From: Verrucomicrobiota bacterium
GTDB taxonomy: Bacteria > Chlamydiota > Chlamydiia > Chlamydiales > Rhabdochlamydiaceae
Assembly (NCBI GenBank): GCA_018240015.1
Contig: JAFEGJ010000005.1
Span: 236,570-300,569, forward strand
Direction of reading: 5' to 3'
DNA length: 64,000 nucleotides
Part shown: positions 3-25,426 of the stretch, in pieces
How the letters are laid out: each line of letters starts with the position of its first letter
Position numbering within the stretch: the stretch's first letter is position 1
Notes under the pieces: generated by a model
The model's input: the letters and a program-made list of their open reading frames with translations, nothing else
Told to the model about the DNA's origin: nothing
Database searches by the model: none
Translations under genes and position numbers: made by a program

Positions 3-599
3 ATGCGTATGGGAAGGGATTTGTTGAAAAATCCTCACCGGCGGATCTATGGTCCAGGACTGCCACTTCAAGAGAATCTTTCTGGAGAATTTTCTCTCGA
101 CAATTTTCACTTTCTTTTAAGGGATGCTGCTCAGTTTCTTCATATGGAAATGCCAAGTGTTATCTCTCGCTATATTCCTCTTGTGAATGGAGAGCCAAAA
201 AGTATCCCAGAAATCGGTGACCTCCAGAAACTCGCAAAGGAATCTATCATCATTGCCACAGCCGATCCTATGCACCATGGCATCGCCTACGGCACTCCTC
301 CAGAAAAGTGCTTGCCCATTTCGCCTGCAGCTTATGAGCTGGCATCGCGGATTATCGATGGCGCCTTAAGCTTTTTGTCGGGGGATGATTTGGACGCTTT
401 TCAAAAATACTGCTGGGATAATCGCAGTGATGCTGACAACGTAGGGCAAATTCTTCGTTTTCTTTTAGGACCTCTCAAGGGCGTCATCCATGATCTTAAG
501 TTAATCAATGTCGAAAAGCTGTATCCCGAGAACTGCCATCCTAGCTGGGTTGCGGCTGCTTTGATTGAATTGATGCCTCTTCTAGGAGACCCTGAATAA
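3..599 (+). CDS. hypothetical protein, 5'-truncated by the window edge
   Basis: Frame is open to the window start and stops 9 bp before the next same-strand ORF. I can name no confident motif; the stretch TADPMHHG only faintly recalls Memo/LigB-type metal sites. Confidence 0.55.
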   Translation: MRMGRDLLKNPHRRIYGPGLPLQENLSGEFSLDNFHFLLRDAAQFLHMEMPSVISRYIPLVNGEPKSIPEIGDLQKLAKESIIIATADPMHHGIAYGTPPEKCLPISPAAYELASRIIDGALSFLSGDDLDAFQKYCWDNRSDADNVGQILRFLLGPLKGVIHDLKLINVEKLYPENCHPSWVAAALIELMPLLGDPE

Positions 600-608
600 C
601 TGCTTTCC

Positions 609-1661
609 ATGCCAACTATAAATACGATAAGAAATAGCATTTTTTCTTCTTGGTCATTAGAACTCACTCGTGCGTACCACCGCGATATTGCGACCGTTGG
701 GGCTGGTCTCATAGGGTTTGATAAAGCTGCTAACCTGATAGGTGATTATTTTAAAAAAGAGTCAGCATGCAGTTCCTTGAGTCCAGCTCAAATCGACAGA
801 TATAAATTTTTCTTTCCAGTGTCTCTGCTTCCTGCTGCCCTTCTTAATCAGAATATAACAATTGCTGGTGCATCGATCGTACCCGACATATGGCGCAGGA
901 TTTGCGAGTTTCTCACCAATCCTAAGGATGTTTTACAGTTAAGCCAGACCAGCAAAGCGCTTGTAGGTCTTCGAACCGACGCCCAAGTCTTAAAAATAAT
1001 GTGGCAAAATCATATTACTGATCTTGAAAAAGTCGTCTTTGGAAAAGAAGCCTGGAACACCCATTTTGGAGACGTCGGAGAAGTAGATCCCATTCCCGAA
1101 GCCCTGGTAAAAGCCCTCGAAGAGCCCTGTCCCTTTATTGCAGGCAAGAAAGTCAAAGAAACCCATATCGCTTGTTGGATCCCTACCCACGTGAATGGCA
1201 CCTCCCTCACCCTCAATACGCTTGGTAAGCTCGTCCAAAATCCGCTCCAGGGCCACACAAGTAAGTATAATTACTTCTGGGCTCAAGCCAAAAGAGACCA
1301 TGGGAATAAACCCATAGAGAAAGGTCACTGGATCCTTTTGACAAAAACCGTTCTTGAAGGAAGCCGAACTACACCCAACAAACAGAAAAAACAGCTTGTT
1401 GAAGGTTATCCAGGTTACGAAATGCCGACCGTGCTATCCACAGCCATAGCCCTCTTTATGCACCACGCAAGAACTGGAGAGCGACTATATAATGACGATC
1501 CTGGGACTTACACTCTGTGCCAAGAGAAAAGCAATGGATGGTCCTTCGTTGTTGGGAGCTTCGTGGCCGGCGGCCTCACCGTCAACTTCGGCTTGGACTT
1601 CGAATGCTACGCCCACATTGGCGTTGGGGGCCTGCGGAAGTTCCCGGCACTTGGGACTTGA
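609..1661 (+). CDS. F-box-like domain protein with an uncharacterised C-terminal domain
   Basis: VPDIWRRICEFLTNPKDVLQLSQTSKALVGL fits the F-box consensus (P-x-[DE]-[IL]-x-x-x-I-x-x-x-L ... D-[LV]-x-x-L ... S-K-x-[LW]). The ORF is 350 codons long. Confidence 0.7.
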   Translation: MPTINTIRNSIFSSWSLELTRAYHRDIATVGAGLIGFDKAANLIGDYFKKESACSSLSPAQIDRYKFFFPVSLLPAALLNQNITIAGASIVPDIWRRICEFLTNPKDVLQLSQTSKALVGLRTDAQVLKIMWQNHITDLEKVVFGKEAWNTHFGDVGEVDPIPEALVKALEEPCPFIAGKKVKETHIACWIPTHVNGTSLTLNTLGKLVQNPLQGHTSKYNYFWAQAKRDHGNKPIEKGHWILLTKTVLEGSRTTPNKQKKQLVEGYPGYEMPTVLSTAIALFMHHARTGERLYNDDPGTYTLCQEKSNGWSFVVGSFVAGGLTVNFGLDFECYAHIGVGGLRKFPALGT

Positions 1662-1743
1662 ACCATTGGCATTGGTCTCTCCTTGGTCTTTGGGAAGGCC
1701 GGCGTCAGCCGGCCTTAGAGTAATTCGACTACTTGTAGATATC

Positions 1744-2652
1744 TCAGGGAATTTGTGCTAGAGCCTGATCACTAGCATATTTTTCGGTGTAAGCCTTGTA
1801 TTGGACATCGAAGTGGGCTTCGAGCTCAGGGAATTTGGCATGGAGATATTCTTTAAACTCTTTATGGATGCAGGGGTAGTGTTTCGGTTTTTTGAGAGAA
1901 AAACGGCCCACATCGATTTGGACAGCTTTATTGTCGATAAAGGCAAAGTTTTTCTCGAAGTTGGGATGGCTGTCGCTGATCCCTTTTTGGCAGCGCTGGT
2001 AAAGATATTCGAGTAGTGAATCGATTCCTTCTTTCGCCAAATGGATGTCTCCGTTTGCCATGTGTTTTTCGATAGTAGGATGCACGAGGTCTGCCACGTC
2101 TTGGAGAACAAATTCAAAGTCATGTAGATCGACATTGTATTCGGTATGATCAGGACCCACGAGCGTTATTTTGTGATGGAAATCATCTTGGGGATTTAGA
2201 TGAACAAAGTGAAGAGCCGTTTCTTTTTGGAGCTGATCGAAGGCGATTTTGTAACTATAGATATCGCGATCGAGATTATGTTGCTTATGGGCAATTTCTT
2301 TGCCGCGGTAAGAGATAAATGGAGGAATTAAATACCGGATCCACCTATACACTCGGTAGTGCCGTTGCTTGACGAACTTCAAAACGTATTTGTTATCTTC
2401 ACTGAAAAAGGTATAAATCTGATTTCCAAATCCCACGTATCTAAATTTTTGATTTAAAATAGAATGAATATGGGATTTTTCTTCTAATGAAACAGAATGG
2501 ACTTCCCAATTTGGATTATAAGGGTGCTCCGGAAACATATTATCGAGGCGAAATTCCTTATTTCTTTGACGTTCGATATATTCCCCGACGGTGAAGAAAT
2601 AAACTCCGTAAAGAAGAAGTAAACTTGAGCTAAAAACAAGTAATTTTTTCAT
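1744..2652 (-). CDS. membrane-anchored protein-kinase-like (PKL/APH/Kdo-kinase-like) protein, paralog 1
   Basis: N-terminal hydrophobic anchor, then motifs YVGFGNQ...KYVLK, KETAL, FVLQ, ISDSHPNFEKN and VQIDVG. Its start has an ATGA overlap with the stop of the upstream paralog. Confidence 0.8.
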   Translation of the reverse strand: MKKLLVFSSSLLLLYGVYFFTVGEYIERQRNKEFRLDNMFPEHPYNPNWEVHSVSLEEKSHIHSILNQKFRYVGFGNQIYTFFSEDNKYVLKFVKQRHYRVYRWIRYLIPPFISYRGKEIAHKQHNLDRDIYSYKIAFDQLQKETALHFVHLNPQDDFHHKITLVGPDHTEYNVDLHDFEFVLQDVADLVHPTIEKHMANGDIHLAKEGIDSLLEYLYQRCQKGISDSHPNFEKNFAFIDNKAVQIDVGRFSLKKPKHYPCIHKEFKEYLHAKFPELEAHFDVQYKAYTEKYASDQALAQIP

Positions 2653-3530
2653 TGTGCGTATTTCTCACTATAGGCTAGGTATTGTTCATCGTAGTGCTTT
2701 TCTAATTCAGGGTATTTGTTGTGAAGGAAATTCTTAAATTTTTCGCTGATATGGGGAAAATCTTGGGGCTCCCCTAAAGAAAAGCGTCCAATATCGATCT
2801 GCACAGCTTTATCGTTGATAAATGCGTAGTTCTTTTCGAGGTTGGGATCGCTGTCATCGATTTTCTTTTTGCAGCGGTTGTAGAGAAGCTCAAATAAGGA
2901 ATCGATAGAAGCTTTTGCCCCTGCTAGGTCACCACTTTCCATGTGTCTATTGATATTAGGGCAGACCATTTCAGCTTTGTCTTGGAGGATGAATTCACAG
3001 TCGTGAAGATCGATGTTCAATTTATTATTTTCTCTATCGATGAGCGTAACCGTATGGTGAAAGTCATCGCCAGGGGACTTAAGGTGTACGAACCGGAGGG
3101 CGGTCTCATCACGAAGCTGTTCGAAAGCAATCTTATAACTATTAAAATCCCGCTCTAATGTGCGCTCTATGTGGCCTATTTTTTTTTCGCGGTAAGATAA
3201 AAACGAAGGAACCAGATACCTCATCCAACGTGGAACGGTGTAGCGGCGTTGCTTGAAAATTTTTAAAACATACTTGTTGTCAGTGCTAAGCAGCACGTAA
3301 ACTTGTGTGCCGCCGCCAATATATCGAAAATCTTGGTTTAATATCGTGTGAACGCTTGTCTTTTCTTCTTGCGAAAGAGGTCGAATATTCCATTTGCTCT
3401 CATAGGGGTGGTGGGGGAGCATGTTGAGTAAATTAAATTCTTTGGTTTGATTGTAGTCTCCAAGGGTTAAGAAGTAGATGCCATAGGAAAAAAGCAAAGA
3501 AACGCCCATGATCGAGATTTTTTTCAACAT
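2649..3530 (-). CDS. membrane-anchored protein-kinase-like protein, paralog 2
   Basis: Same block order as paralog 1 (YIGGGTQ...KYVLK, DETAL, FILQ, IDDSDPNLEKN, VQIDIG). I chose the start MLKKISIMG at 3530 by alignment to paralog 1; the longer ORF extends to 3548. Confidence 0.8.
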   Translation of the reverse strand: MLKKISIMGVSLLFSYGIYFLTLGDYNQTKEFNLLNMLPHHPYESKWNIRPLSQEEKTSVHTILNQDFRYIGGGTQVYVLLSTDNKYVLKIFKQRRYTVPRWMRYLVPSFLSYREKKIGHIERTLERDFNSYKIAFEQLRDETALRFVHLKSPGDDFHHTVTLIDRENNKLNIDLHDCEFILQDKAEMVCPNINRHMESGDLAGAKASIDSLFELLYNRCKKKIDDSDPNLEKNYAFINDKAVQIDIGRFSLGEPQDFPHISEKFKNFLHNKYPELEKHYDEQYLAYSEKYAQ

Positions 3531-3624
3531 AGACAAACAGAGTAGCAATTAGAACCTGTGTTTGTCAATCATTCTTGACCAAATTAACCGGCTAAGGATA
3601 GAAGCTAAATTAGGAGGTTTTATT

Positions 3625-3840
3625 ATGGGTATGCTAACTTTTTTGTTTTTAGTTTTAGCTGCTATCACCGGTTATTTTGCCTTTAAGAAGGGGCCAAAAA
3701 CGGGGGGAAAGCAAGTTGCAAAGGCATTTTTTTATGTGTTTGTCGTTCTTTTCGTGATCATGATCGCGCTCATATTGGTGGAGATGTTTTTCCATCCTAA
3801 AGTCGACGTGAACGTGAAAGGCATGTCATTCCCTAAATGA
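3625..3840 (+). CDS. small two-TM membrane protein
   Basis: ATG at 3625 sits 8 nt after AGGAGG. The protein is hydrophobic (MGMLTFLFLVLAAITGYF...). The stop overlaps the next start (ATGA). Confidence 0.6.
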   Translation: MGMLTFLFLVLAAITGYFAFKKGPKTGGKQVAKAFFYVFVVLFVIMIALILVEMFFHPKVDVNVKGMSFPK

Positions 3841-4877
3841 ATAAAGACGTCATCATCGTTACAGGAAGCTGTGGACGTATTGGCTCAGCCGTTGTGAAGC
3901 GGCTGGGTCAAAATTTTCGTGTCGTCGGCTTCGAATTGTTAAAAGCCATTTATGCCTCCGCGAGCGAAGAGCTCGTCCCCGTGGATTTAGGATCCGATGA
4001 GAGCGTCCATCAAGCGTTCATGCACATTCGGCACTTTTATGGTAATCGGATAGCATCGGTCATTCATTTAGCTGCCTACTATAGCTTCGACCAGCAGCAC
4101 TCGCCCCTCTATGAGAAAGTCACCGTCGAGGGAACCAAGCGCCTTCTAAATGCTTTGCAAAAGTTTGAAGTGGAGCAATTTCTATTTTCCAGCACCATGC
4201 TCGTCCATGCCCCGACAAAGCCGGGCAAGAAAATCACCGAAGAATCTCCCGTCATCCCCAAATGGGATTATCCTCTCTCCAAAGTGCGCACGGAAGAAGC
4301 CATCCACGAGCTTCGAGGAAAAATTCCTTCCGTGGTTTTGCGCATCGCGGGCGTCTATGATGACAAATGCCATTCGATTCCGATCAGCCATCAAATCCAG
4401 CGCATCTATGAAAAACAGCTCGAAAGCCGCCTTTTTGCTGGTGACGTTTCTCACGGCGCGGCCTTCCTTCACATGGACGACCTTGTCGACGTGATCGAAA
4501 AAGCTGTCATGCAAAGAAAAAGTCTACCTTCCGAGTTAACACTCCTCATCGGCGAGCCAAAAACCCTGAGCTATGATGACCTACAAAGGCAAATCAGCCG
4601 CCTGCTCACAGGGAAAGAAATCCATACCTTTTCCATCCCCAAACCCCTAGCCAAAATGGGGGCGTTTGTTCAGTGCCATCTTCCCTTCGTCAAACCCTCC
4701 TTTATTAAACCTTGGATGATTTCTCTTGCTGATGACCATTATGAACTCGATATCAGTAAGGCAAAGAAGGTTCTCGGCTGGGAGCCTAAACGATCGCTGG
4801 GTGAAATCCTTCCAAAAATGATTGCCGATCTCAAAAATGATCCCACCCAGTGGTACAAAGAAAATCAATTGAAATGA
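3837..4877 (+). CDS. NAD-dependent epimerase/dehydratase family (extended SDR) protein
   Basis: Rossmann motif IIVTGSCGRIGSAV and catalytic YPLSK. Confidence 0.85.
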   Translation: MNKDVIIVTGSCGRIGSAVVKRLGQNFRVVGFELLKAIYASASEELVPVDLGSDESVHQAFMHIRHFYGNRIASVIHLAAYYSFDQQHSPLYEKVTVEGTKRLLNALQKFEVEQFLFSSTMLVHAPTKPGKKITEESPVIPKWDYPLSKVRTEEAIHELRGKIPSVVLRIAGVYDDKCHSIPISHQIQRIYEKQLESRLFAGDVSHGAAFLHMDDLVDVIEKAVMQRKSLPSELTLLIGEPKTLSYDDLQRQISRLLTGKEIHTFSIPKPLAKMGAFVQCHLPFVKPSFIKPWMISLADDHYELDISKAKKVLGWEPKRSLGEILPKMIADLKNDPTQWYKENQLK

Positions 4878-6064
4878 TTTGGACATCCTTTGCACTCATT
4901 TTTCTCGGTCTTTGGCAGTGCGCGGCGCCGGCAACTTTCGGATACGAGGATCCAACCCATTTTTTCACGGGACTTCTCCTCATCATCGGCGGTTTTTATT
5001 TGCGCCGCCAGTCATCGTTTCCGGTTCGGTGGGCTCTTGCCTTTGTGGGACTCTTTTTGCAGCTCTCTCCGCTACTTTTTTGGGCTAAATCGCCAGCGCA
5101 GTATCTGAACGACACACTCATCGGCGTCCTCGTCATCTTATTTGCGATCATTTTCCCCAGCCATGAAAAAGCAGAAACTCCCAGCCTCCCTCCTGGCTGG
5201 TCCTACAATCCCTCGACCTGGCCCTCGCGCATCCTCATCGCTTTTTTTGCAACGATTGGTTGGTTCATCTCCAGATATCTTGCCGCCTACCAACTCGGAT
5301 ACATCCATACGATGTGGGATCCTTTTTTTGGCAATGGAACAATCAACGTCATCACATCAGCCGTCTCTCGAGCGTTTCCTGTGTCGGATGCAGGTCTGGG
5401 TGCAGCGAGCTATACGATCGAACTCCTCTTAGCCTGTTACGGCGGACGCATGCGGTGGTGCCATAGCCCTTGGCTCGTGATCATCTACGGCATCCTTGTC
5501 GTTCCGGTTAGCATCGTCAGCATCGTGCTCATCATCTTGCAACCCCTTGCCGTAGGCTCTTGGTGCACGCTCTGCATCCTGACCGCGATATGCATGCTTG
5601 TGATGGCGACGCTCGCGGTCGGCGAACTGGTACTCGTCGTACAAATGCTCATCAAAAGTAGGGGGACTGGCTTTTGGAAAGGGTTCAACGTCCAGCAAAC
5701 GAGCGCCGATAAACGCACCCTTGCTGTCCATTCTCCATTGAAGGACCTACTTTTATTTGCTTTAACTGGCATCACTCCCACGTGGCGTCTTCTCGTCAGC
5801 GCCGTCCTCGGCGTTATTTTAATCACCTCGCAGTCCCTCAAGGACTTGGATCCCATTTTTGGCGCGCTCGTCATAGTGACCTCCGTTCTCTCCATGGTAG
5901 AACCCATCCGTTCGTGGCGTTTTGCCAATGCAGCGTGGGGATGTCTTATTTTAGGAGCTCTTTTTTGGACAGGCTCGGTTCTTCTCATGCATGGAGCCAT
6001 AGCGATTCTACTAATTTGGCTGAGTCTGAAAGCCGGAACTAAACGGGAGGAGTGCCGATGCTAG
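4874..6064 (+). CDS. polytopic membrane protein with CX7C and intramembrane CXXC motifs (possible VKOR/DsbB-like thiol oxidoreductase)
   Basis: About 10 hydrophobic segments. Contains CYGGRMRWC followed one helix later by SWCTLCIL. The start is ATGA-coupled to the epimerase stop. Family assignment is tentative. Confidence 0.6.
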   Translation: MIWTSFALIFLGLWQCAAPATFGYEDPTHFFTGLLLIIGGFYLRRQSSFPVRWALAFVGLFLQLSPLLFWAKSPAQYLNDTLIGVLVILFAIIFPSHEKAETPSLPPGWSYNPSTWPSRILIAFFATIGWFISRYLAAYQLGYIHTMWDPFFGNGTINVITSAVSRAFPVSDAGLGAASYTIELLLACYGGRMRWCHSPWLVIIYGILVVPVSIVSIVLIILQPLAVGSWCTLCILTAICMLVMATLAVGELVLVVQMLIKSRGTGFWKGFNVQQTSADKRTLAVHSPLKDLLLFALTGITPTWRLLVSAVLGVILITSQSLKDLDPIFGALVIVTSVLSMVEPIRSWRFANAAWGCLILGALFWTGSVLLMHGAIAILLIWLSLKAGTKREECRC

Positions 6065-6561
6065 ATCTTTTAAGAGCGATTCCTTGGTGGGGCTACATCT
6101 TATTTTTTTCTCTGATAGGACTGGCCCTCAAAGCGCGCAAACCCCAAGTGATGTCCGTGAGCAAAATTTTCCTCATGCCTCTGATCTTCACCCTTTGGTC
6201 TCTCTATAGTGTTTTTGCATCGCACACCATTTTCTTCTCTACATTCATCTGGCTTCCGTTTCTGGTTGCCGGCGCAGTCTTCGGATGGATTCTGTACCGG
6301 CCCGTGACCGTTCGTGCAGATCACAAAAAACGGCTCATTGAAATTCCCGGAACGTGGGCAACACTTGCCCTGGTTCTCATCATCTTTATTATCGAATACA
6401 CTTTGGGATATCTATACGCCAAACATCCCAAAGCCGATAAGAGCCATTTAATTTTTGGCCTGCGCATGGTGACATCGGGGGCGATTACCGGAATCTTTGC
6501 TGGAAAGGCGCTTTTACTGATGCAGAAGTTTCATAAGGCGCCTCAAACGGATTTGACTTAA
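6058..6561 (+). CDS. membrane protein, function unknown
   Basis: ATG at 6058 is 7 nt after GGGAGG and overlaps the upstream stop. Four to five hydrophobic helices. Confidence 0.65.
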   Translation: MLDLLRAIPWWGYILFFSLIGLALKARKPQVMSVSKIFLMPLIFTLWSLYSVFASHTIFFSTFIWLPFLVAGAVFGWILYRPVTVRADHKKRLIEIPGTWATLALVLIIFIIEYTLGYLYAKHPKADKSHLIFGLRMVTSGAITGIFAGKALLLMQKFHKAPQTDLT

Positions 6562-6571
6562 GAGGATTCTG

Positions 6572-7570
6572 CTATACTTCGACCAGTTGTTTGCCGAGGT
6601 TTTCTCCTGAAAAAAGACCCAAAAAAGCAAGGGGAATATTTTCTAGGCCCTTGACTATGCTCTCGCAAGATTTAACTTTTCCATCGTGCCACCATTCTAA
6701 CAATTGCTGGCGCCCTTCAGGATATCGTGTGGGATAGTCTTGAGTAATCAGGAATCCTCTTGCTGTGGCGCTTTTAACGATCAAATGACGAAAGTTGCGA
6801 GGGCCAGTATCAGGACTTACTAGATTGTAAGAAGAGATTTGGCCACAAAGGACAACACGCGCATGCCGATTGATTTGCTTCATGACTTCATCGGTGATAG
6901 TGCCGCCAACATTGTCGAAATAAATGTCCACCCCATCTTTGCAAGCATTTTGTAGAGAGCTCACCCAATCGGAATTCTTATAATTAACGGCTGCATCAAA
7001 TCCCAGCTTGCTTTCAAGGTAACGAGTTTTTGCATCCGTTCCAGCAATCCCTACGACTCGGCATCCTTTAATTTTGGCAATTTGGCCCACAATCATTCCT
7101 ACCGCTCCAGCAGCTCCGGAGATGACCACCGTTTCTCCCGGTTTGGGTAGGCCAATATCTAGCAAACCAAAATAGGCCGTCATCGCCGGCATTCCTAGGA
7201 CGCTTAAGGCTGTGGCGACAGGCACACCCTTATCAATTTTCCATAGAGAAGATCCAGACAAAGCAGAGTAGTCGGCCCATTCTAAGTAGCCGCAAACATG
7301 ATCACCTTTTTGAAAATCAGGATGCTTCGACATAACAACTCGGCCCGCTCCATCCCCATTTGCCGGGGAATTTAAGGGAAAAGGAGGGTGCGAAGAAGGG
7401 CGTCCACCTATTCGGCCGCGCATATACGGATCGACAGATAGATAAAGCGAACGAACGAGGACCTCTCCTTCTTTTAATTCTGGCACCGAACCCCTATGCA
7501 GAGTAAAGTTATCTACGGTCGGCAGTCCTTGAGGTCGTGATATGAGATGAATTTGGCGGTTATTTTCCAT
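6572..7570 (-). CDS. NADP-dependent oxidoreductase, MDR superfamily (YncB/CurA/PTGR1-like)
   Basis: ISGAAGAVGMIVGQIAKIKGCRVVGIAG cofactor loop and typical N-terminus (RPQGLPTVDNF). Start taken at MENNRQ. Confidence 0.85.
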   Translation of the reverse strand: MENNRQIHLISRPQGLPTVDNFTLHRGSVPELKEGEVLVRSLYLSVDPYMRGRIGGRPSSHPPFPLNSPANGDGAGRVVMSKHPDFQKGDHVCGYLEWADYSALSGSSLWKIDKGVPVATALSVLGMPAMTAYFGLLDIGLPKPGETVVISGAAGAVGMIVGQIAKIKGCRVVGIAGTDAKTRYLESKLGFDAAVNYKNSDWVSSLQNACKDGVDIYFDNVGGTITDEVMKQINRHARVVLCGQISSYNLVSPDTGPRNFRHLIVKSATARGFLITQDYPTRYPEGRQQLLEWWHDGKVKSCESIVKGLENIPLAFLGLFSGENLGKQLVEV

Positions 7571-7638
7571 TAGATTAAGTATGCGGATCCTACTTTTCCC
7601 TGACAAATAAAAATTCGCGCTTTAAAATGAGGCTTAGT

Positions 7639-7935
7639 TTAAGCCGCTTTCCATGGCTTGGGTGAACCCTTGGCATTTTGCCGGCGCGTGATTTCCCATT
7701 GACGATAGGGCTTTTCCAGGCGCTCCCAAAATGCAGGGGAAGTACCCAGTGCCGCAGCAAGGAGTGCAGCCGTTTCCTGATTGATCCCTTCCTTGCCCTT
7801 CAAAAGATCTTCGACCTTTTTTTCGGGCCACTGGAGTTTGGCTGCGAGCTGCTGGGGTGTCATACCCAGCGGCGCTAAAAAATCTTCCTTGAGGATTTCT
7901 CCGGGGGCTGTCGGTCTGCGGCGTTTGGGTGTCAT
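7639..7935 (-). CDS. higA: HigA-type antitoxin (XRE helix-turn-helix)
   Basis: PGEILKEDFLAPLGMTPQQLAAKL...INQETAALLAAALGTSPAFW matches HigA/VapI-type antidotes. There is a 4-bp overlap with the upstream toxin gene. Confidence 0.85.
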   Translation of the reverse strand: MTPKRRRPTAPGEILKEDFLAPLGMTPQQLAAKLQWPEKKVEDLLKGKEGINQETAALLAAALGTSPAFWERLEKPYRQWEITRRQNAKGSPKPWKAA

Positions 7936-8216
7936 CGTATGGCTACATCCTCGGCGTTATTACCATTCCATCGAAAACAGAGCCGAAAGTTCCCTGTGAG
8001 TGGAATGCTATAAAAATCTTGAACATCTCGTTTAAGTCCTCCGCCTCGATGCGAAGGAATGGCCTCGAGAGTCTCAAACGTCTCTACGCTATTGAGAAGA
8101 TCGAGTTTGCGCTCGGCCATCTTCACGATGGAGGAGGAGAACTTTTTTCGAATGGCATGTGTATAAATACCTTCGAAAATCTCCTCGGTCATAGCATCGG
8201 CAAAAGAGTTAATCAT
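7932..8216 (-). CDS. higB: HigB-type toxin (RelE/ParE superfamily, plasmid-maintenance killer)
   Basis: About 94 aa starting MINSFADAMTEEIF. Contains ...LEAIPSHRGGGLKRDVQDFYSIPLTGNFRLCFRW, typical of HigB. Toxin-first gene order. Confidence 0.8.
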   Translation of the reverse strand: MINSFADAMTEEIFEGIYTHAIRKKFSSSIVKMAERKLDLLNSVETFETLEAIPSHRGGGLKRDVQDFYSIPLTGNFRLCFRWNGNNAEDVAIR

Positions 8217-8287
8217 AATTTTTCTTATATGGGTATATCCGATTTGAATCAATGCCTGTTTTTTCTCAGTTATGTATACTCATATTA

Positions 8288-9118
8288 ATGTTGAAACGAC
8301 TACTCATTTTAGTTTGTCTCGTGGTGCTTTATTTTCCGCTCAGCCGGTGGTGTCATAAGCAAACCCATGGCTTTACGATTACCGGTATTACCCAGCAGCA
8401 TCGAGGAACTCTTTCTCAAGTCGCTTATGATCCCGAAGTTTTTGCGCAGCCGTATCATTACCTCGGTTACGGCGCTCAAGCCTTTGTTTTTGCAAGCGCT
8501 GACGGCAAGTACGTGATCAAATTTCTAAAGCAAAAGCGGCACCAGATTCCCTTATGGGTCAAATTGCTTCCTCATACATCCACCTATGAAAGGTATGCTA
8601 GGAAAAAGGGGCGCAAAAAGGCGCGCGAGCTAGCCGGCTATGAAATGGCCCTCAGTGAGCTGCAAAAAGAGACGCAGCTCGTGATGCTCCACTACAAGCG
8701 CTCGACCAACTTGCCCCATCTTCAGCTCACCGACCCTTTGAACATTCAGCATGAAATCGATCTCAATCGCACCGATTTTATCGTCCAAAGAAGAGCCCAG
8801 ATGATTTATCCCACGATTGAGGCTATGTTTTCTCAAGGGAAGCAAGAAGACGTTAAAAAAGTGATCCATTCGCTGTGCCAAAATATCGTTTCTCGCTGCA
8901 AGAAGGGGATACATGATCGTGATCCCAACATTGGGACCAATATGGGCGTGATCGGAACCGACGTAGTCCAAATCGACTTAGGCAAACTTGTCCCTAGAGA
9001 AAATATTGACTGCCAAGAAGAGCTGATGAGGGCTATAGCTCCTTTTCAGGAGTGGACTATGCGGTGCCATCCCGAGCTTACTTCGATGCTCCAAACAGAA
9101 TTGGAATTGAGGAAATAA
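8288..9118 (+). CDS. membrane-anchored protein-kinase-like protein, paralog 3
   Basis: YLGYGAQAFVF...GKYVIKFLKQ, KETQL, FIVQ, IHDRDPNIGTN and VQIDLG, in the same order as the two paralogs at 1744-3530. Confidence 0.8.
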   Translation: MLKRLLILVCLVVLYFPLSRWCHKQTHGFTITGITQQHRGTLSQVAYDPEVFAQPYHYLGYGAQAFVFASADGKYVIKFLKQKRHQIPLWVKLLPHTSTYERYARKKGRKKARELAGYEMALSELQKETQLVMLHYKRSTNLPHLQLTDPLNIQHEIDLNRTDFIVQRRAQMIYPTIEAMFSQGKQEDVKKVIHSLCQNIVSRCKKGIHDRDPNIGTNMGVIGTDVVQIDLGKLVPRENIDCQEELMRAIAPFQEWTMRCHPELTSMLQTELELRK

Positions 9119-9142
9119 TCCACTTCAATTAGGTTGGGCATT

Positions 9143-11935
9143 ATGGATGCTCGTAAAACCCTTTCTGCAAATCGTGTCTATTATTCTCTTCCAGCACTAG
9201 AAGAACAAGGGATTGGTAAAATCTCTCGGCTTCCGATTTCGATTCGGATCATGCTCGAATCTCTCGTGCGTAATTGCGATGGACAGCGCGTCACAGAAGA
9301 TGATGTAAAACGTCTGGCGCAGTGGAGCCCGAAAAAAAATCCCGATGTCGATGTTCCTTTTGTGGTGGCGCGGGTGATTCTGCAAGATTTTACCGGCGTG
9401 CCACTTCTAGTCGATTTAGCAGCGATGCGCGATGCCGTGGCTGCGAAGGGCAAAGAGCCATCGCTGATTGAACCGAAAGTTCCGGTCGATTTGGTGGTGG
9501 ACCACTCGGTGCAAGTCGATAGAGCGGGCACAAAAGATGCGTACATGTTCAATCTCAAGCTGGAGTTTGAACGCAACCTGGAGAGGTATGCGTTTCTCAA
9601 GTGGGGACAAGAGGCTTTCGAGACGTTTAAAGTTGTGCCACCGGGCATCGGCATTGTCCACCAAGTCAATTTAGAGCAAATCGCGAAGGTCGTGATCGAA
9701 GAAAATGGCGTGGTTTTCCCCGATACGCTGGTAGGAACCGATTCGCATACGACGATGATCAATGGTCTGGGTGTTTTGGGGTGGGGAGTCGGCGGTATCG
9801 AAGCGGAGGCCGCGATGCTGGGCCAGCCTTATTTTTTCCAGATGCCCGAGGTGATAGGCTTTCATTTAGCGGGAAAGCTGCAAGAAGGGGTGACCGCTAC
9901 CGATTTGACTCTCCGGGTCACTGAAATCCTGCGTAAAGAAAAGGTCGTGGGAAAATTTGTCGAGTTTTTTGGCGAGGGTGCCGCGAGTTTGTCGGTGGCA
10001 GACCGCGCGACGATCGGCAACATGGCTCCCGAATATGGAGCGACCGTGGGCTTTTTCCCTGTCGATGAGAAGACGCTCGATTATTTGAAGAAGAGCGGGC
10101 GCACGGACGCAGAAATTGCTCTTGTGAAAGAGTATTTTCTCGCGCAGAAGATGTTTGGCATTCCCAGGAGAGGCGAAGTCGATTTCACCAAGGTCATAGA
10201 GCTCGATTTGGGCAGTGTGGTCCCTTGTGTAGCAGGTCCCAAGAGGCCGCAAGATCGGATCGATTTACCGGATCTCAAGAAGCAATTCGAGATGCTTTTG
10301 ACAAAACCTACAGCTGATGGTGGGTATGGCAAAAGCGGCAAAGATCTTGTGCGGCACGTGGGCGTGCACAGCGACGGGATTTTTTCTCTGGATGCTCCGC
10401 ACCAAACGGGCGGTACCGAGAACATGAATGGAAAAGGAGAAGTGCTCGGGCGCAATGAAACGGAAATGGTGACCAACCGTCCGATAACGACGCCGGCTGT
10501 GAACCCTGGCTACAGCGAACATAAACATTTCGACATTGCACTGAGACACGGATCTGTTGTGATTGCGGCGATCACGAGCTGCACGAATACGAGTAATCCC
10601 AGTGTCATGATCGGGGCGGGACTGCTAGCCAAAAAAGCGGTGGAAAAAGGGCTGAAAGTCAATCCGATGGTCAAGACGAGTTTGGCTCCGGGCTCGCGGG
10701 TTGTGACCGATTATCTAGAGAAAACGGGTCTTCAAAAATACTTAAATCAGCTGGGCTTTGAGCTCGTTGCCTACGGATGCACCACCTGCATCGGCAACAG
10801 TGGTCCGCTCGATGAAAAAATCGAGCAGGCGATCAAAGATTATGAACTGGTGACGGCTAGTGTCTTAAGTGGAAACAGGAATTTCGAAGCCCGCATCCAC
10901 GGCTCGGTGCGCGCGAATTTTCTCATGTCGCCACCCCTCGTCGTTGCTTTTGCCATCGCGGGAAGGGTAGACATCGATCTCGTCGATGAGCCGCTCGGCT
11001 ATGGAAAAGACGGCAAACCGGTGTTTTTGGGAGAAATTTGGCCGACATCGGAGGAAATTGCCGAAGCTGTCCGCCAGATCACGCCGGAGATGTTTAAAAA
11101 ACGGTATGCCCACATTTTAGAAGACAATCCTTTGTGGTCAGAAGTCAAAACGAAAGGGGGAGTCCAATACCAGTGGAGCCCTAAAAGCACGTATATCCGT
11201 TGCCCGCCTTATTTTTCTGATTTCGAACTAAAAAAACCTCCCGCACCGGTGTTAAAAGAGATGAAAGCTCTCGCAATTTTTGGCGACTCCATCACGACGG
11301 ATCATATTTCGCCGGCGGGTGCTTTTAAATCGGATACACCAGCTGGAAAATATCTCCTCTCGTGTGGTGTCCAACCGGATGAGTTCAATAGCTACGGCAG
11401 CCGCCGCGGCAATCACGAAGTGATGATGCGCGGCACCTTTGCGAATGTGCGCATCCGCAACAAAATGGCGGACGGCAAGGAAGGCGGTTTTACCAAAGTA
11501 GACGGGAAAATCTTGCCGATCTTTGAAGCCTCAGAGATCTACCAAAAGAAAAAAATCCCCCTCATTCTTTTTGCGGGGAAAGATTATGGCATGGGCAGCT
11601 CCCGGGACTGGGCCGCTAAAGGGACAGCGCTTCTCGGTGTTAGAGCCGTCGTCGCCTGTAGTTTTGAGCGCATCCATCGCAGCAACTTAGTCGGCATGGG
11701 CGTACTTCCTCTCGAATTTTTAGAAGGGGAGTCGGCCGAAACGCTCGGCATCCAAGGGGATGAAACTTTTTCTTTGATAGGCCTCGAAAAGGAAATCAAA
11801 CCGAGGCAAGAAGTCACACTGCAGATGGGGAAAAATAAGACAGTCAAACTAAAGATTCGTCTCGATTCTCCTATAGAGGTGGCCTATTACCAAAATGGTG
11901 GTATCCTCCCTTGCGTTCTTCGTCAACTTTTATGA
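9143..11935 (+). CDS. acnA: aconitate hydratase A
   Basis: [16 protein letters not shown] and [11 protein letters not shown]e-S ligand motifs. About 930 aa, colinear with AcnA/IRP-type aconitases. Confidence 0.97.
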
Positions 11936-11969: not shown

Positions 11970-13364
11970 ATGGTAGAACGTTGGGTCAGCCGGGTTTTCT
12001 TTCTTTTCCTCCTATGCATGCCCCTGACGCGCCGTTTTAGTAAAATTTTTAGATCCTATTTTGAGTCGATCATCCCTTCCGATATTCAGCTGCCCGGCAC
12101 TTTCGATTGGCATCATGGAGTGTACATAGGAGATTTTGCCTATCTATTGTTGTTTATCGTGCTAGCAATTGTGGGCAGATGGAGTTGGAAACTGTGGGTG
12201 CAAAGCCCCACTCAGCGGTATTTAACACTTTTTTTAGCCACTGTTTTTATTTCGATCCTCACATCTTCTTCGCCCCACTATCCTATCCACTACCTGCGCT
12301 TCATGCACTTGCTCCTGCCTTGTCTGCTCTTTTATTTCATGAGTGAAGGAAAAATTTTAAACGATCGCAAAACACTTCTGACCCAGGTGGCTACAGCTGT
12401 TGTTATTTTAGGGGCATTTGAGTCCCTGGTTTGCCTCGTCCAATATTTTACACAACACGGAGTGGGTTTAAAATATTTAGGAGAGCCCGCCTTGACCTCG
12501 CGCCATGTTCCGGCCCCGTCCATTAGTGTGGCGGATGGCTCTTTGACTCTTTTCGATCATTGGCTTTCCCCTGGAGAGCATAAGCCGATTATCCGCGCGG
12601 TAGGAACTCTTTACCATCCTAATATTTGCGCCGGTTTTTTAGTCTTTAGCCTGCTCTTTTCCTATGCTTTATATTTAAAAGTAGGTCGAAAAAGATGGAT
12701 TAATTTGGCTATCTTTTTGCAGATCGTAGCTCTTTTTGTCACGTTTTCTAGAGCTGCGCTATACGCCTGGGTACTAGGGACGGCGCTCTGGTTTTTCTTT
12801 TTAAAACTAAGAGAAAAAAAACTGGCTTTGCTTCTCCTCTCGAGCGCGGTGTTTTGCCTTGTTCTCTTTTATCCTCAACTATCAGATAGAGGAGGCGTTT
12901 TTTCCTATAATGCGACTGCACGAGGATCTGATTATACAAGGTTAGAATACGCCCTCATTGCGGGATCTATCATTCAGGACCATCCGTGGCTGGGGATTGG
13001 ATTTGATCATTATTTGATCGATGGCCCCGCTTATGCCTACAAACTAGGGTTTACAAACGGCTATTATTTCAATTATGTCCACAATATCTTTTTATTTATT
13101 GCGGCTGAAAACGGCCTCATAGGGCTGATCTTTTTTCTCTTATTTATCGTGACAGTGGTCCAACAAGGCTGGTCAGTACGCAAGGGGCCGGAAGGAGCCA
13201 CTCTCATGGCGCTCTTTATCTGTTTTCTCTTTTTAGGAAGCTGCGATATCTATTTATTCATGTCGCAGATCGGCCGGTTTATGCTTTTTCTCACCGCTGC
13301 TGGAATCGTTTCAATTGCGCCAGCCAGAAAACCAGCCACCGCCCCCCGTATTGCTATTGCTTGA
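11970..13364 (+). CDS. O-antigen ligase (WaaL/Wzy_C) family membrane protein
   Basis: About 12 TM segments. Contains YHPNICAGFL, FSRAALYAW and the HNIFLFIAAENGLIGL block typical of the Wzy_C domain. Confidence 0.8.
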   Translation: MVERWVSRVFFLFLLCMPLTRRFSKIFRSYFESIIPSDIQLPGTFDWHHGVYIGDFAYLLLFIVLAIVGRWSWKLWVQSPTQRYLTLFLATVFISILTSSSPHYPIHYLRFMHLLLPCLLFYFMSEGKILNDRKTLLTQVATAVVILGAFESLVCLVQYFTQHGVGLKYLGEPALTSRHVPAPSISVADGSLTLFDHWLSPGEHKPIIRAVGTLYHPNICAGFLVFSLLFSYALYLKVGRKRWINLAIFLQIVALFVTFSRAALYAWVLGTALWFFFLKLREKKLALLLLSSAVFCLVLFYPQLSDRGGVFSYNATARGSDYTRLEYALIAGSIIQDHPWLGIGFDHYLIDGPAYAYKLGFTNGYYFNYVHNIFLFIAAENGLIGLIFFLLFIVTVVQQGWSVRKGPEGATLMALFICFLFLGSCDIYLFMSQIGRFMLFLTAAGIVSIAPARKPATAPRIAIA

Positions 13365-14888
13365 AGGATTCGCTGGAGGAGGGGTAGGAGTCGGCGAGGA
13401 TGTGCGTGACATTTCATGCCATCCCGTGTCAAGAGCGTTGTTATTATTATTGTTGTTATTCGAATTGGGCAGAGGCGTAGGTGTTGGTGTTTCACCCATG
13501 ATCACAAAGTCATTCAAAAGCGGATCTGGGGTGGACGGTTTATCGACTTTAAAATCACCAAAATTATATGGAGGTCCCGCTTGGTTGTTAGGGGGATTGA
13601 TAACGGGATTCGCGGGCGGGGGAGGCTGGGGATTATTGGAAGCGCCCGGTTGCTGCGAAGAGCTGCCCGGATTGACTACCCAGGGTCCTTCCCAAGCATG
13701 AGCCCAGAAATAATATTGGTCGGGACTTAGGAAGAAGAAATCATCGAGATGGGTGTCGCCAGGGTTGGTGATGATCGGTTCCATGGGGTGGATATTGGTA
13801 ATCGTTGGCTTGCCATTAGTTAAAGCGGGAATAACGAGATTTTCCATGTCGAGCGGTGCGCCAGAGCTGGCGAGGCGTTGCCCGTCTTTTAGGACAATGC
13901 CTTCATTCATATTGCGCGCTGTGCCGTCGCCTTGGAAGACGTAGATGATATCGTTTTCTTGGGAAGCTGCTTCAGCGTCTTTTAGCTTCGAAAACGGCGA
14001 TTCAAAAGAGCCGTCTCCACCAGGAGCGGCTAAGTTATTCACAAAGTGCAGCCGTACAGGCTTGCCGTCTTCATCTTCTTGGTAATAAGCGACTCTGCGC
14101 GTTTTTTGGTGCAGCGGAATGATCTCGCTTCGATAGACAGGGGTGTCATAGAGATTGCGGCCCTGCGTTGTTTTTTCTTTTTTTCCGCCCAGAGGGATGT
14201 TGATAGCGAGATAGCCTTGCACTTTCGTATGGAAAATCTGATCGTAGGAGACCGATGCACCCAAAGAGATATATTTGTACACATCCATATCTAGGTGGGC
14301 TTTTCCTCCCGCTGAATTTCCCAGCTGGTGGCCGCGGACTTCACGCCCGAACAAATAATAAGGGCCGGCTCCCAGGTAAATCCAGGAGTTTATCGGTCCT
14401 CCCACTTCTAAATCCACTACAGGAAGAGCCGCGATCAGTTTTTGCTTTTCTATAATCTGTTTTCCCTGAAATTTAAGAAATTCTTCGTGTTTGTAGCGTG
14501 TATCGTCACCTACGGGGAAGTATCCATTGAGCCTGACATCGACACACCGGCTTAAAAACTCGAGACCGCCGCCCACTTGATTAGTATGGAGGTGCTTGCT
14601 CTCACGAAAATCGTAATAAAAATTGCCTCCCAGCAAATAGGCCCCGTCATAAATAGAGCGCCTTGCACCAATGCCTAAGTTCGAAGCAAACCTGGCGTCG
14701 TTGAATAGATGGCCTCTGGCATTAAGGAAGAATTGGGAAAGCTCGCCAATATGCGAAATCGTATAGTCGACAGTCGAATAACCTTTATTATAACCAATAC
14801 CCGCTGATTCTCGGTGCCGGACCTGCAGTTTTGACTCTGAAGCCAGCAGAGTGCAGGAGATGAATAAGAGAACTATTATTTTTCGCAT
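13311..14888 (-). CDS. inverse autotransporter (intimin/invasin-type beta-barrel) with short passenger and Pro/Asn-rich tail
   Basis: Signal peptide MRKIIVLLFISCTLLA. The block LGIGARRSIYDGAYLLGGNFYYDF...VGGGLEFLSRCVDVRLNGYFP matches the LG-G-R...G-N-F-D...G-G-E...NGYF pattern of the intimin beta-domain. The C-terminal passenger begins GGDGSFESPF. Confidence 0.75.
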   Translation of the reverse strand: MRKIIVLLFISCTLLASESKLQVRHRESAGIGYNKGYSTVDYTISHIGELSQFFLNARGHLFNDARFASNLGIGARRSIYDGAYLLGGNFYYDFRESKHLHTNQVGGGLEFLSRCVDVRLNGYFPVGDDTRYKHEEFLKFQGKQIIEKQKLIAALPVVDLEVGGPINSWIYLGAGPYYLFGREVRGHQLGNSAGGKAHLDMDVYKYISLGASVSYDQIFHTKVQGYLAINIPLGGKKEKTTQGRNLYDTPVYRSEIIPLHQKTRRVAYYQEDEDGKPVRLHFVNNLAAPGGDGSFESPFSKLKDAEAASQENDIIYVFQGDGTARNMNEGIVLKDGQRLASSGAPLDMENLVIPALTNGKPTITNIHPMEPIITNPGDTHLDDFFFLSPDQYYFWAHAWEGPWVVNPGSSSQQPGASNNPQPPPPANPVINPPNNQAGPPYNFGDFKVDKPSTPDPLLNDFVIMGETPTPTPLPNSNNNNNNNNALDTGWHEMSRTSSPTPTPPPANPSSNSNTGGGGWFSGWRN

Positions 14889-25383: not shown

Positions 25384-25426
25384 TTACAGACTCCATTTTT
25401 TCTTTTAAATAAATTAATTCGACTAT

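Follow-up and report, generated by a model that had tools for sequence, protein, structure and literature searches.

Three genes encoding related proteins, referred to here as A, B, and C, lie in the window, which is the whole 64 kb stretch of DNA analyzed, and their positions are given in Table 1 with those of their motifs and of the neighboring genes. The stop codon of B overlaps the start codon of A in the sequence caATGAaa, and A is translationally coupled to B. Alternative upstream starts exist for B (a TTG at position 3548, giving 299 amino acids) and for C (an ATG at 8252, giving 288 amino acids). Over the full alignment A is 57% identical to B and 28% identical to C; in BLASTP, A and C share 32% identity over 200 amino acids with an E value of 8e-38, a likeness far beyond chance. 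The initial annotation had reported three open reading frames at these positions, the ATGA coupling, and a series of ordered blocks common to the three proteins, and these features were all recovered by the open reading frame check and by regular expressions, which located every motif block in A, B, and C, confirming the three as genuine paralogous genes. They are also the only matches to the family HMM among the six-frame open reading frames of at least 120 amino acids in the window, with an E value of 4.8e-103 for B. Protein A is 100% identical to JSR58_05030, a protein of the metagenome-assembled genome (MAG) at NCBI, and protein C (P0027) corresponds to JSR58_05075.

Table 1. Genes, motifs, and membrane anchors of the kinase-like proteins and nearby genes, in window coordinates
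Feature	Position	Strand	Residues or length	Remarks
Gene A	1744-2652	-	302 aa	Second of tandem pair; paralogue of B
Gene B	2649-3530	-	293 aa from ATG	First gene of tandem pair
Gene C	8288-9118	+	276 aa from ATG matching homologues' starts	Diverged paralogue
G-x-G-x-Q ... K-Y-V-[LI]-K			A 74-92, B 72-90, C 60-78	Regular expression
[KD]-E-T-x-L			A 143-147	Regular expression
F-[VI]-[LV]-Q			A 181-184	Regular expression
A, Gly-rich β1-β2 turn to β3 Lys92	2377..2433	-	74-92	Gly76, Gln78, Ser84/Asp86
A, catalytic loop to DFG-like motif	1906..1980	-	225-249	I-S-D227-S-H229-P-N-F-E-K-N235, then V-Q-I-D247-V-G249
B, catalytic loop to DFG-like motif	2787..2861	-	224-248	I-D-D-S-D-P-N-L-E-K-N ... V-Q-I-D-I-G
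C, catalytic loop to DFG-like motif	8909..8983	+	208-232	I-H-D-R-D-P-N-I-G-T-N ... V-Q-I-D-L-G
A, hydrophobic anchor	2584..2643	-	~4-23	
B, hydrophobic anchor	3462..3518	-	~5-23	Flanks +2 (N side), -1 (C side)
C, hydrophobic anchor	8300..8338	+	~5-17	
Small membrane protein	3562..3840	+	92 aa	Divergent from B; followed by epimerase and VKOR genes
WaaL/Wzy_C-like gene	11970-13364			Pfam E 3.9e-19
LicD gene	14936-16021			E 2e-18

The full catalytic set of B comprises Lys90, the Asp226-x-Asp228 element, Asn234, and Asp246 (B numbering), and the full set is present in C as well. A keeps Lys92, Asp227, Asn235, and Asp247, but the near-invariant catalytic Asp is replaced by His229; thus B and C have the catalytic Asp, the Asn, and the DFG-like Asp of protein-kinase-like (PKL) enzymes, and A alone is without the first of these. 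Among 167 diverse members of the family Lys92, Asn235, and Asp247 are 100% conserved, and Gly76 (99–100% overall), Ser84, Asp86, His151, Gln184, and Gly249 are conserved to about 99%. Many of the invariant polar residues are located away from the ATP site, among them Asp166 in a family-specific β-hairpin, and Ser84 and Asp86 in segment 74–92 of A are also family-specific. In 185 genome-derived members Lys92 is found in 185, Asn235 in 184, and Asp247 in 182, the remainder being gaps, and position 229 is occupied by the catalytic Asp in 183, with A one of the two exceptions. Across more than 300 homologues, with identities down to about 25%, no variation is seen in the β3 Lys, the catalytic loop Asn, or the DFG-like Asp. 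The Lys, Asn, and Asp proposed in the initial annotation are thus conserved in homologues, and neither of the two outcomes that it had named as refuting it (no bilobal kinase fold, or unconserved catalytic residues) has come about. It had, however, read the [HD] position as tolerated variation, which is in fact the catalytic Asp that A lacks. The candidate αC Glu, Glu144, is 83–87% conserved and is positioned in a short helix (residues 142–145) just 3 residues before β4 in the model of A.

AlphaFold2 models were obtained for full-length A, with a pLDDT of 91.4, and for residues 31–302, with a pLDDT of 95.9 and a pTM of 0.91. Three strands (residues 69–75, 79–84, and 89–94) place Gly76 in the β1-β2 turn and Lys92 in the middle of β3. 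In both Foldseek searches the best 50 PDB matches are all PKL enzymes with a probability of ~1.0, including AceK, WbdD, PRPK/Bud32, and many ePKs (PDK1, MAPKs, PknB, and YabT), and nearly all informatively named entries among the best 50 BFVD matches are annotated as protein kinases or kinase-like proteins, viral Ser/Thr kinases included. One phage protein described as "APH-like" is found at rank 20 in BFVD. The likeness to every solved kinase is remote, with TM values of 0.3–0.5 and identities of at most 18%. These predictions support a bilobal PKL fold for A, B, and C, as the motif order had initially suggested. After the DFG-like motif the model of A has only two helices, the chain ending about 55 residues later, and it contains no activation segment or APE motif.

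Neither Pfam nor NCBIfam gave a match to A, B, or C even at E≤10, in agreement with the earlier statement that the proteins cannot be assigned to a named family. Searches of 66 members against kinase families at E≤1 found none apart from a faint match to FTA2, which we take to belong to the Pkinase clan of Pfam, in 3 of the 66 (best E 0.007). The candidate families considered were rejected as follows. Eukaryotic-type protein kinases (Pkinase, PK_Tyr_Ser-Thr) gave no HMM match in either search and are also set apart by their activation segment with APE motif and their αF–αI helices, against only two helices after the DFG-like motif here. The HMMs of the LPS core kinases (Kdo PF06293, WaaY PF06176, and their NCBIfam equivalents) were not matched. 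For APH and choline kinases (LicA-like; APH PF01636, Choline_kinase) and for the secretory-pathway kinases (Fam20C, POMK, CotH, and FAM69/PIP49) there was no HMM match, and none of them is among the top 50 PDB matches in Foldseek. The AceK family gave no Pfam match, and its Foldseek likeness is confined to the kinase core (TMt 0.22–0.28), with 578 amino acids compared with 276–302. The top 50 fold matches also contain no WaaP structure. In hhalign comparisons, each individually insignificant, position 229, Asn235, and Asp247 fall on D457, N462, and D475 of Escherichia coli AceK (E 0.05), its catalytic Asp and its Mg-binding Asn and Asp, and position 229 falls on the catalytic Asp of E. coli WaaP (E 0.49) and of E. 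coli WaaY (E 0.18), in which Asn235 and Asp247 coincide with the Mg-binding Asn and Asp. The catalytic loop in these alignments is one residue longer than in HRD...N kinases. The KINtaro catalogue holds 72 PKL families, and chlamydiae are unmentioned in its main text (PMC10870513).

Among the nearest known systems, the kinase domain of AceK, the isocitrate dehydrogenase kinase/phosphatase (PDB ID 6k5l, 3eps, and 3lcb), ranks first or close to first in Foldseek (E 2.6e-4, TMq 0.43–0.48). However, identity is only 9–10%, and AceK is a soluble protein kinase/phosphatase with a large extra domain, no membrane anchor, and a catalytic loop one residue shorter than the chlamydial one. The kinase domain of WbdD, the chain-terminating kinase-methyltransferase of E. 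coli O9a polymannose (PDB ID 4azs and 4ax8), is a top match with the highest identity of all (17–18%, E 2–4e-4). This bacterial PKL enzyme adds phosphate to a membrane-associated glycan, an activity similar to the one suggested below for the chlamydial family, but its TM values are 0.29–0.36, it carries a fused methyltransferase and coiled coil and has no N-terminal helix anchor, and no sequence relationship is detectable. Bud32/PRPK (PDB ID 4ww7 and 7sza) shares with the chlamydial proteins a comparably small size and a truncated C-lobe and gives the highest target-normalized TM (0.46–0.50); it differs in its low identity (11–13%) with no HMM match, in being a soluble KEOPS subunit that acts as a regulated ATPase or protein kinase, and in lacking the family-specific β-hairpin, the Ser84/Asp86/His151/Gln184 set, and the membrane anchor. 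WaaP, WaaY, and KdkA (Pfam Kdo and WaaY) are likewise small bacterial PKL enzymes, acting on a membrane-bound glycolipid; waaP and waaY are paralogues in one operon, and KdkA has an N-terminal anchor. Compared with these, the Glu-Thr, His-Leu-Asn, and Phe-x-Leu-Gln blocks are specific to the chlamydial family. A likeness of context only may be seen in the LicA-LicD phosphocholine pathway and in POMK with fukutin/FKRP, where a PKL kinase is paired with a LicD-family transferase and POMK is anchored by an N-terminal membrane helix, although neither POMK nor any choline kinase is among the top 50 fold matches, no APH or choline kinase HMM matched, and the chlamydial genes have no visible LicC-type nucleotidyltransferase beside them.

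A, B, and C each start with 2–3 basic residues, after which comes a hydrophobic stretch of some 17–20 residues, bearing out the anchor first noted for all three. In A this stretch has no cleavage site of the Ala-x-Ala type and forms part of a single continuous helix (residues 2–30) in the full-length model, and family members are probably tethered to the membrane by one uncleaved N-terminal helix. In A and B, and in sequences closely related to them, the charges flanking the anchors hint at a periplasmic catalytic domain, for which the supply of ATP would need a special explanation. WaaP and KdkA, cited in the initial annotation as facing away from the cytoplasm, are established to work on the cytoplasmic side of the inner membrane, in conflict with that description.

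The family comprises 2,545 clusters at 50% identity. All of its named members come from Chlamydiota MAGs and are annotated as "hypothetical protein," with representatives in Parachlamydiales, Rhabdochlamydiaceae, Simkaniaceae, and Anoxychlamydiales. It is a large, unnamed, and unstudied family, so far known only from environmental chlamydiae (Chlamydiota-restricted), and the proposal of a three-member, lineage-specific expansion does not hold. In most genomes its genes form head-to-tail arrays of 2–8 diverged paralogues, usually five to eight, with conserved order and overlapping genes. This old tandem array of conserved order, situated elsewhere in the genome, is the usual form of the family; the three copies in the window are dispersed members of a "solo type" and lie in a conserved neighborhood of aconitase, VKOR, and epimerase genes. 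Of the three only A and B are in tandem. Their pair recurs as such in another metagenome contig (L057), and at the syntenic loci L048 and L056 one gene is found in its place.

A, B, and C are probably minimal membrane-tethered PKL phosphotransferases that use ATP and act on a non-protein acceptor of the envelope. B and C would bind Mg-ATP between the two lobes and pass the γ-phosphate to a hydroxyl of this acceptor at the membrane surface, the likeliest candidates being a glycan or glycolipid of the envelope, or else a polar head-group feeding a LicD-type phosphotransferase. The base would be Asp228 of B, the counterpart of position 229 in A. The further invariant polar residues Ser84, Asp86, His151, Asp166, and Gln184 would form a shared acceptor pocket. 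With His at the base position, A may serve B as a weakened or regulatory partner, or its acceptor may be one for which no base is required. A non-protein substrate is suggested by the missing activation segment and APE motif, the two helices after the DFG-like motif, and the invariant polar residues outside the ATP site.

A role as atypical Ser/Thr/Tyr protein kinases, membrane-tethered or exported and directed at chlamydial envelope or host proteins, is unlikely. Most Foldseek matches are protein kinases, the faint FTA2 matches point the same way, and intracellular bacteria often have effector families with many copies. The minimal PKL enzymes Bud32, HopBF1, and RIO phosphorylate proteins or act as ATPases, making a small C-lobe compatible with protein substrates, and Bud32/PRPK in particular reaches a TMt of 0.5. 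Against this stand the unmatched Pkinase HMM, the same reduced C-lobe, and an N-terminal signal-anchor, which to our knowledge is not a typical feature of type III effectors. Moreover, all the diverged paralogues have in common the invariant polar residues away from the ATP site, a pattern better suited to one shared small acceptor than to varied protein targets.

Rather unlikely is a PKL fold put to other chemistry, such as the AMPylation of SelO, the glutamylation of SidJ, or the ATPase activity of Bud32, or serving as a nucleotide-binding pseudokinase scaffold, with tandem paralogues forming heteromers. Order-conserved arrays of overlapping genes would suit co-translated partners, the catalytic loop has one residue more than that of HRD...N kinases, and within the A/B clade the catalytic Asp has been swapped repeatedly, for His in A and P0005, Asn in P0002 and P0004, and Ala in P0006, in sequences that still keep the nucleotide-binding Lys, Asn, and Asp. 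Outside this clade, however, the catalytic Asp is essentially invariant, the whole canonical set occurs together as is the signature of active phosphotransferases, and neither SelO nor SidJ is found in the top 50 fold matches. That the motifs are a chance resemblance in non-enzymatic membrane proteins is very improbable. The lack of any kinase HMM match would agree with it, as would the sole PDB sequence match, to the cupin enzyme KduI (E 0.002, 68 residues), as a hint of a different fold, but that match is borderline and limited to the β1-β3 sheet, whereas two independent high-confidence models yield only kinase-fold neighbors and the motif residues stay invariant throughout the homologues.

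An extension of the phosphotransferase reading, which we consider quite improbable, is that the catalytic domains face the periplasm and use host-derived ATP, which in energy-parasitic chlamydiae must pass through the periplasm before it reaches the Ntt ATP/ADP translocases of the inner membrane. In that case the order-conserved arrays of five to eight paralogues would constitute a multi-step extracytoplasmic envelope phosphorylation system containing kinase/pseudokinase pairs such as B/A, and bacteria would have an equivalent of the glycan kinases in the eukaryotic secretory pathway.

As for the acceptor of the proposed envelope phosphotransferases, the WaaL-like and LicD genes were found downstream where the initial annotation had placed them, and its idea of a glycan or LOS substrate is a lead only. 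In the window and at L056 a family gene is kept near Wzy_C/WaaL-like, epimerase, and VKOR genes. At five sister-clade loci a LicD-family gene, 41% identical to the window LicD, lies divergent and close upstream, within about 2.5 kb, and from this adjacency the glycan idea gains a little. The recurrent LicD linkage is a weak lead on the substrate, coming from one moderately diverse lineage and from the window, where LicD is 6–11 kb from the family genes; the main arrays lie beside genes for unknown proteins and for a PHO4 phosphate transporter rather than beside glycan genes. The 92-amino acid membrane protein has a counterpart of 70–99 amino acids at the same place in 4 of the 4 loci of its clade and its link to the kinase-like genes may be one of synteny only. 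Gene C adjoins a HigBA module, and 16 bp separate its end from the aconitase gene.

The ORF listing contained the three kinase-like genes proposed in the initial annotation, a tandem pair (A and B) and a copy on the opposite strand (C), and every motif block described for them was found in each of the three proteins. The tetranucleotide ATGA is common to the stop codon of B and the start codon of A. Identity over the whole alignment is 57% between A and B and 28% between A and C, with a BLASTP E-value of 8e-38 for A against C, and no fourth copy was detected in the window when a family HMM was searched against six-frame ORFs of at least 120 aa. The NCBI MAG entry JSR58_05030, labelled "Verrucomicrobia bacterium", has the same sequence as the protein encoded by A, and the product of C is JSR58_05075. 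All three N termini carry two or three basic residues followed by a hydrophobic stretch of ~17-20 residues. A promoter and terminator scan of positions 1500-9300 is uninformative, because shuffled controls gave more sites than the sequence itself.

Coordinates of window features (nucleotides) and of structural elements (residues of protein A)
Feature	Position	Strand	Description
Gene A	1744-2652	-	302 aa, from ORF listing
Gene B	2649-3548 as ORF; homology-supported ATG at 3530	-	293 aa from that ATG
Gene C	8252-9118 as ORF; homology-supported ATG at 8288	+	276 aa from that ATG
ORF beyond gene A	609-1661	+	350 aa, no Pfam match
Block divergent from B	3562-6561	+	small membrane protein, NAD-dependent epimerase, VKOR-family protein, DUF6622 protein
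HigB-like toxin and HTH antitoxin	7639-8252	-	directly upstream of C
Aconitase	9134-11935	+	starts 16 bp after the end of C
525-aa protein	13311-14888	-	between Wzy_C/WaaL-like and LicD genes
LicD	14936-16021
Low-GC block	24364-31622	-	GC 0.40-0.42
F-box protein	58386-59990	-	534 aa
beta1	A residues 69-75		predicted structure; Gly turn next
beta2	A residues 79-84		predicted structure
beta3	A residues 89-94		predicted structure; contains Lys92
Long helix	A residues 114-140 plus 142-145		predicted structure; beta4 next
Family-specific beta-hairpin	A residues 161-175		predicted structure
beta5	A residues 181-185		predicted structure; F-x-L-Q; two helices next
Catalytic loop	A residues 224-235		predicted structure; two short strands next
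DFG-like I-D-V-G	A residues 246-249		predicted structure
Position 229	A residue 229		AceK D457; HRD Asp of WaaP; GDPHRGN Asp of WaaY (weak hhalign)

None of the three proteins matched a Pfam or NCBIfam model at E ≤ 10, in agreement with the earlier view that they cannot be assigned to a named family. When 66 family members were scanned singly against Pfam at E ≤ 1, only scattered noise and no kinase family was retrieved, the sole exception being a faint match in 3 of the 66 to FTA2, a member of Pfam's Pkinase clan. Structure prediction was decisive in settling the protein-kinase-like (PKL) fold. The full-length predicted structure of A has a pLDDT of 91.4, and the structure predicted without the anchor from the 66-sequence alignment has a pLDDT of 95.9 and a pTM of 0.91. 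In two Foldseek searches against the PDB, 50 of the 50 best matches were PKL enzymes, among them AceK (E 2.6e-4, TMq 0.43-0.48), the WbdD kinase (17-18% identity), PRPK/Bud32 (TMt 0.46-0.50), Rv3197, PDK1, PknB, and MAP kinases, and the informatively named matches in a viral structure library are nearly all annotated as protein kinases or kinase-like proteins. The bilobal kinase fold proposed from the motif order is thus seen both in the predicted structures and in their Foldseek matches. The only PDB sequence match obtained with the family profiles was to the cupin isomerase KduI (E 0.002), over 68 N-lobe residues from the Gly-rich loop to beta3 (A residues ~64-135, window ~2248-2463). KduI was rejected as the fold because the predicted structures and Foldseek are unanimous for PKL, and the borderline similarity was judged to be chance or convergent beta-sheet likeness. 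With TM scores below 0.5 to solved kinases, the PKL proteins A, B, and C belong to a separate branch of the superfamily, outside any solved family.

The N-lobe and catalytic core of A are predicted to follow the canonical order of secondary-structure elements, and in the model the DFG-like motif is followed by only two helices, with neither an activation segment nor an APE motif. Among 167 diverse members, Lys-92, Asn-235, and Asp-247 (numbering of protein A) are invariant, and Gly-76, Ser-84, Asp-86, His-151, Gln-184, and Gly-249 are ~99% conserved. A second census covered 185 members from 53 genome or metagenome loci and resulted in 185/185 for Lys-92, Gly-76, and Gln-184, 184/185 for Asn-235, and 182/185 for Asp-247, the remainder being gaps, so that the putative catalytic Lys, Asp, and Asn proved to be conserved in homologues. 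Position 227 is Asp in 154 of these 185 and Asn in 30, with whole subfamilies carrying Asn. Position 229 had been described initially as a variable His/Asp position. The variation is genuine, with His in A, but the description overlooked that this is the position of the catalytic Asp, which is kept in 183 of the 185 genome-derived members, His-229 of A being one of the two other residues. Within the clade of A and B, position 229 is Asp in B, in the protein of locus L048 from another genome, and in the homologue P0003, Asn in the homologues P0002 and P0004, His in A and P0005, and Ala in P0006, and despite this variability the clade retains the Lys, the Asn, the DFG-like Asp, and Asp-227. A further locus, L057, has the same layout as the window, with an Asp-bearing first gene (P0003) overlapping a second gene that lacks the Asp (P0004).

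Alignment of the family profile with the single Escherichia coli sequences of AceK, WaaP, and WaaY by hhalign gave weak E-values of 0.05-0.49 and was used for residue correspondence only. In all three weak runs position 229 aligns with the catalytic Asp, and in the similarly weak AceK and WaaY runs Asn-235 corresponds to the Mg-binding Asn (AceK Asn-462) and Asp-247 to the DFG-like Asp (AceK Asp-475). The chlamydial catalytic loop appears one residue longer than that of the three enzymes in these weak alignments. HMM-based membership tests failed for all of the known families compared. Structurally the family is closest to AceK, WbdD, and Bud32/PRPK, with a likeness confined to the common core; WaaP, WaaY, and KdkA are its closest analogues in function. 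By its predicted fold, the family would work like a minimal PKL kinase.

Together with their homologues, A, B, and C make up a sizeable new branch, uncharacterised so far, of the known PKL superfamily. It is set apart by a membrane anchor, its own hairpin and polar residue set, conserved arrays of several paralogues, and a sub-clade in which the catalytic Asp has been lost repeatedly. It has no Pfam model, NCBIfam model, or solved structure; literature searches found no description of it, nor does the KINtaro paper describe it in its main text. A profile search of 1.84 billion representatives returned 2,545 proteins at E ≤ 1e-3, of which 1,801 also reached E ≤ 1e-30, and this, together with arrays of 2-8 paralogues in most loci, replaces the three-member lineage-specific expansion suggested initially. 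All NCBI-named matches are "hypothetical protein" entries from MAGs labelled Parachlamydiales, Rhabdochlamydiaceae, Simkaniaceae, Anoxychlamydiales, Chlamydiales, or Chlamydiae bacterium, or from Verrucomicrobia-labelled JSR MAGs, the window's own group, and a single JGI entry has an automatically assigned glycosyltransferase name. The source record of the window is labelled 'Verrucomicrobia bacterium' (JSR58 locus tags), whereas its informative relatives, without exception, and the synteny indicate Chlamydiota, and this label therefore looks too coarse or wrong. A scan of GTDB species genomes gave 48 loci, all from MAGs, including Candidatus Rhabdochlamydia and Candidatus Acheromyda; it rested on one peptide pattern from a narrowed alignment, [AP][IV]QID[IV]GRF, and cultured chlamydiae are not thereby proven free of the family. 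A few of these loci are labelled Acidobacteria or proteobacterium, probably through binning or naming artefacts, because the array orders of two loci (L031 and L034) recur in chlamydial loci.

At most loci the family genes are arrayed head to tail, often with overlaps (for example L003:8001-12854 and L007:5962-12855, as well as L011, L019, L038, L039, and others). When the members were clustered, the order of subfamilies was found to be conserved between genomes, with a-c-b-e-g-f-k, a-d-l-r-m, and a-o-j-b-e-u-h recurring, indicating that the arrays are old and the paralogues long-lived, and the catalytic residues are intact in every subfamily. A secreted protein of ~265 aa precedes the arrays on the same strand in 32 of 53 loci, and further upstream, on the opposite strand, are a PHO4 phosphate transporter (25/53) and a protein of ~700 aa (23/53). 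The transporter is the only conserved array neighbour with a Pfam domain; none was found in the ~265-aa or ~700-aa proteins, or in a 715-aa protein of locus L001 that is unrelated to the ~700-aa neighbour.

The copies in the window are dispersed members of the family, and none of the array neighbours was found there. A and B cluster with the protein of L048, to which they are 62-66% identical. In L048, one family gene and then a homologue of window ORF 3-599 come after a syntenic block made up of aconitase, a HigA-like gene, DUF6622, VKOR, epimerase, and a small membrane protein; L056, in another genome, has the same block with Wzy_C beyond aconitase. The small membrane protein, epimerase, and VKOR genes are conserved beside the family gene in L048, L056, and L057; the small membrane protein of the window (92 aa) has a below-cutoff match to a choline-transporter family (E 3.5e-5). 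The tandem pair A/B thus occupies the place of a single gene in L048 and L056. A neighbour-joining tree of the clade did not resolve the timing of the duplication, which, given also the 57% identity, is not demonstrably recent. The 350-aa ORF between A and ORF 3-599 looks like an insertion, because L048 and L056 lack a counterpart here, their homologue of ORF 3-599 coming straight after the family gene. For gene C the fetched loci offer no close relative (38-40% identity at best); together with a HigBA module it sits between an oxidoreductase gene and the aconitase gene. The HigB-like toxin of this module matches PF05015 (E 5.8e-8), and its start lies immediately beside an alternative ATG of C at 8252; L048 has a HigA-like remnant only and no copy of C. 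The short gap and shared strand suggest that C and aconitase may be co-transcribed, and no terminator-like site was found between them.

The family combines a PKL fold and an uncleaved N-terminal hydrophobic helix with a nucleotide/Mg site that is complete and conserved, and B and C also have the catalytic Asp; it would act as an ATP-dependent phosphotransferase at the membrane. The side of the membrane on which the domain lies is ambiguous from the family-wide flanking charges, which average 1.8 Lys/Arg before the helix and 2.3 Lys/Arg with 1.4 Asp/Glu after it. Only the A/B clade leans toward an N-in/C-out orientation, A, B, and P0002-P0006 having N-flanks of +2 to +3 and C-flanks of 0 to -4, which by the positive-inside rule would place their domain in the periplasm. 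No conserved or co-varying cysteine pairs, a sign of periplasmic disulfides, were found in the family. The initial annotation had cited WaaP and KdkA as outward-facing precedents; these enzymes work on the cytoplasmic side of the inner membrane. Chlamydiae import host ATP via inner-membrane Ntt translocases, and ATP must therefore cross the chlamydial periplasm, so that a periplasmic kinase supplied with ATP in transit is conceivable. One family-bearing contig encodes a TLC transporter.

A non-protein acceptor is weakly favoured over a protein, because the C-lobe is without the elements by which protein kinases bind peptides and because polar residues outside the ATP site are invariant across paralogues of ~25-35% identity. 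This set, Ser-84, Asp-86, His-151, Asp-166 of the inserted hairpin, and Gln-184, suggests from conservation a common small polar moiety as acceptor. Gene context also favours a non-protein acceptor, since a LicD-family phosphotransferase gene lies divergently close upstream of a sister "solo" clade in five loci, its product being 41% identical to the LicD of the window, and genes for Wzy_C/WaaL-like, epimerase, and VKOR proteins are found near the A/B clade. The glycan or lipooligosaccharide substrate proposed initially gains a little from the LicD linkage, which comes essentially from one lineage, but the main arrays have no glycan genes nearby. The LicA-LicD and POMK-fukutin pairings are resembled by genomic context only. 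Ordered, conserved arrays of membrane-tethered kinases with intact sites imply a sizeable overlooked phosphorylation system. The family amounts to thousands of sequence clusters, and as many as eight members are present per genome in environmental chlamydiae, a group in which both the envelope and the interaction with the host are little understood. Should the acceptor be a glycan or lipid of the envelope, this would mean new surface chemistry in Chlamydiota, and a periplasmic domain would be an unusual instance of chemistry that depends on ATP beyond the cytoplasm. It is now possible to define the family by an HMM, to give it a domain entry, and to test it with simple biochemistry, which is of relevance to specialists in chlamydiae and in kinase evolution.

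Several other genes of the window were noted. The 525-aa protein has a weak match to the inverse-autotransporter beta-domain (PF11924, E 2.2e-6) and a Pro-rich C-terminal part with a run of eight Asn. The low-GC block encodes ORFs of 1,121, 339, and 200 aa without a Pfam domain and a 724-aa ORF with weak, below-cutoff matches to helical-repeat families such as apolipoprotein. Host-directed effectors of the F-box-protein kind are known from amoeba-associated chlamydiae, and the 534-aa protein, which contains a eukaryote-type F-box (PF12937, E 4.9e-8) and is encoded where the GC content of the window is lowest (0.38), is a candidate for such an effector.
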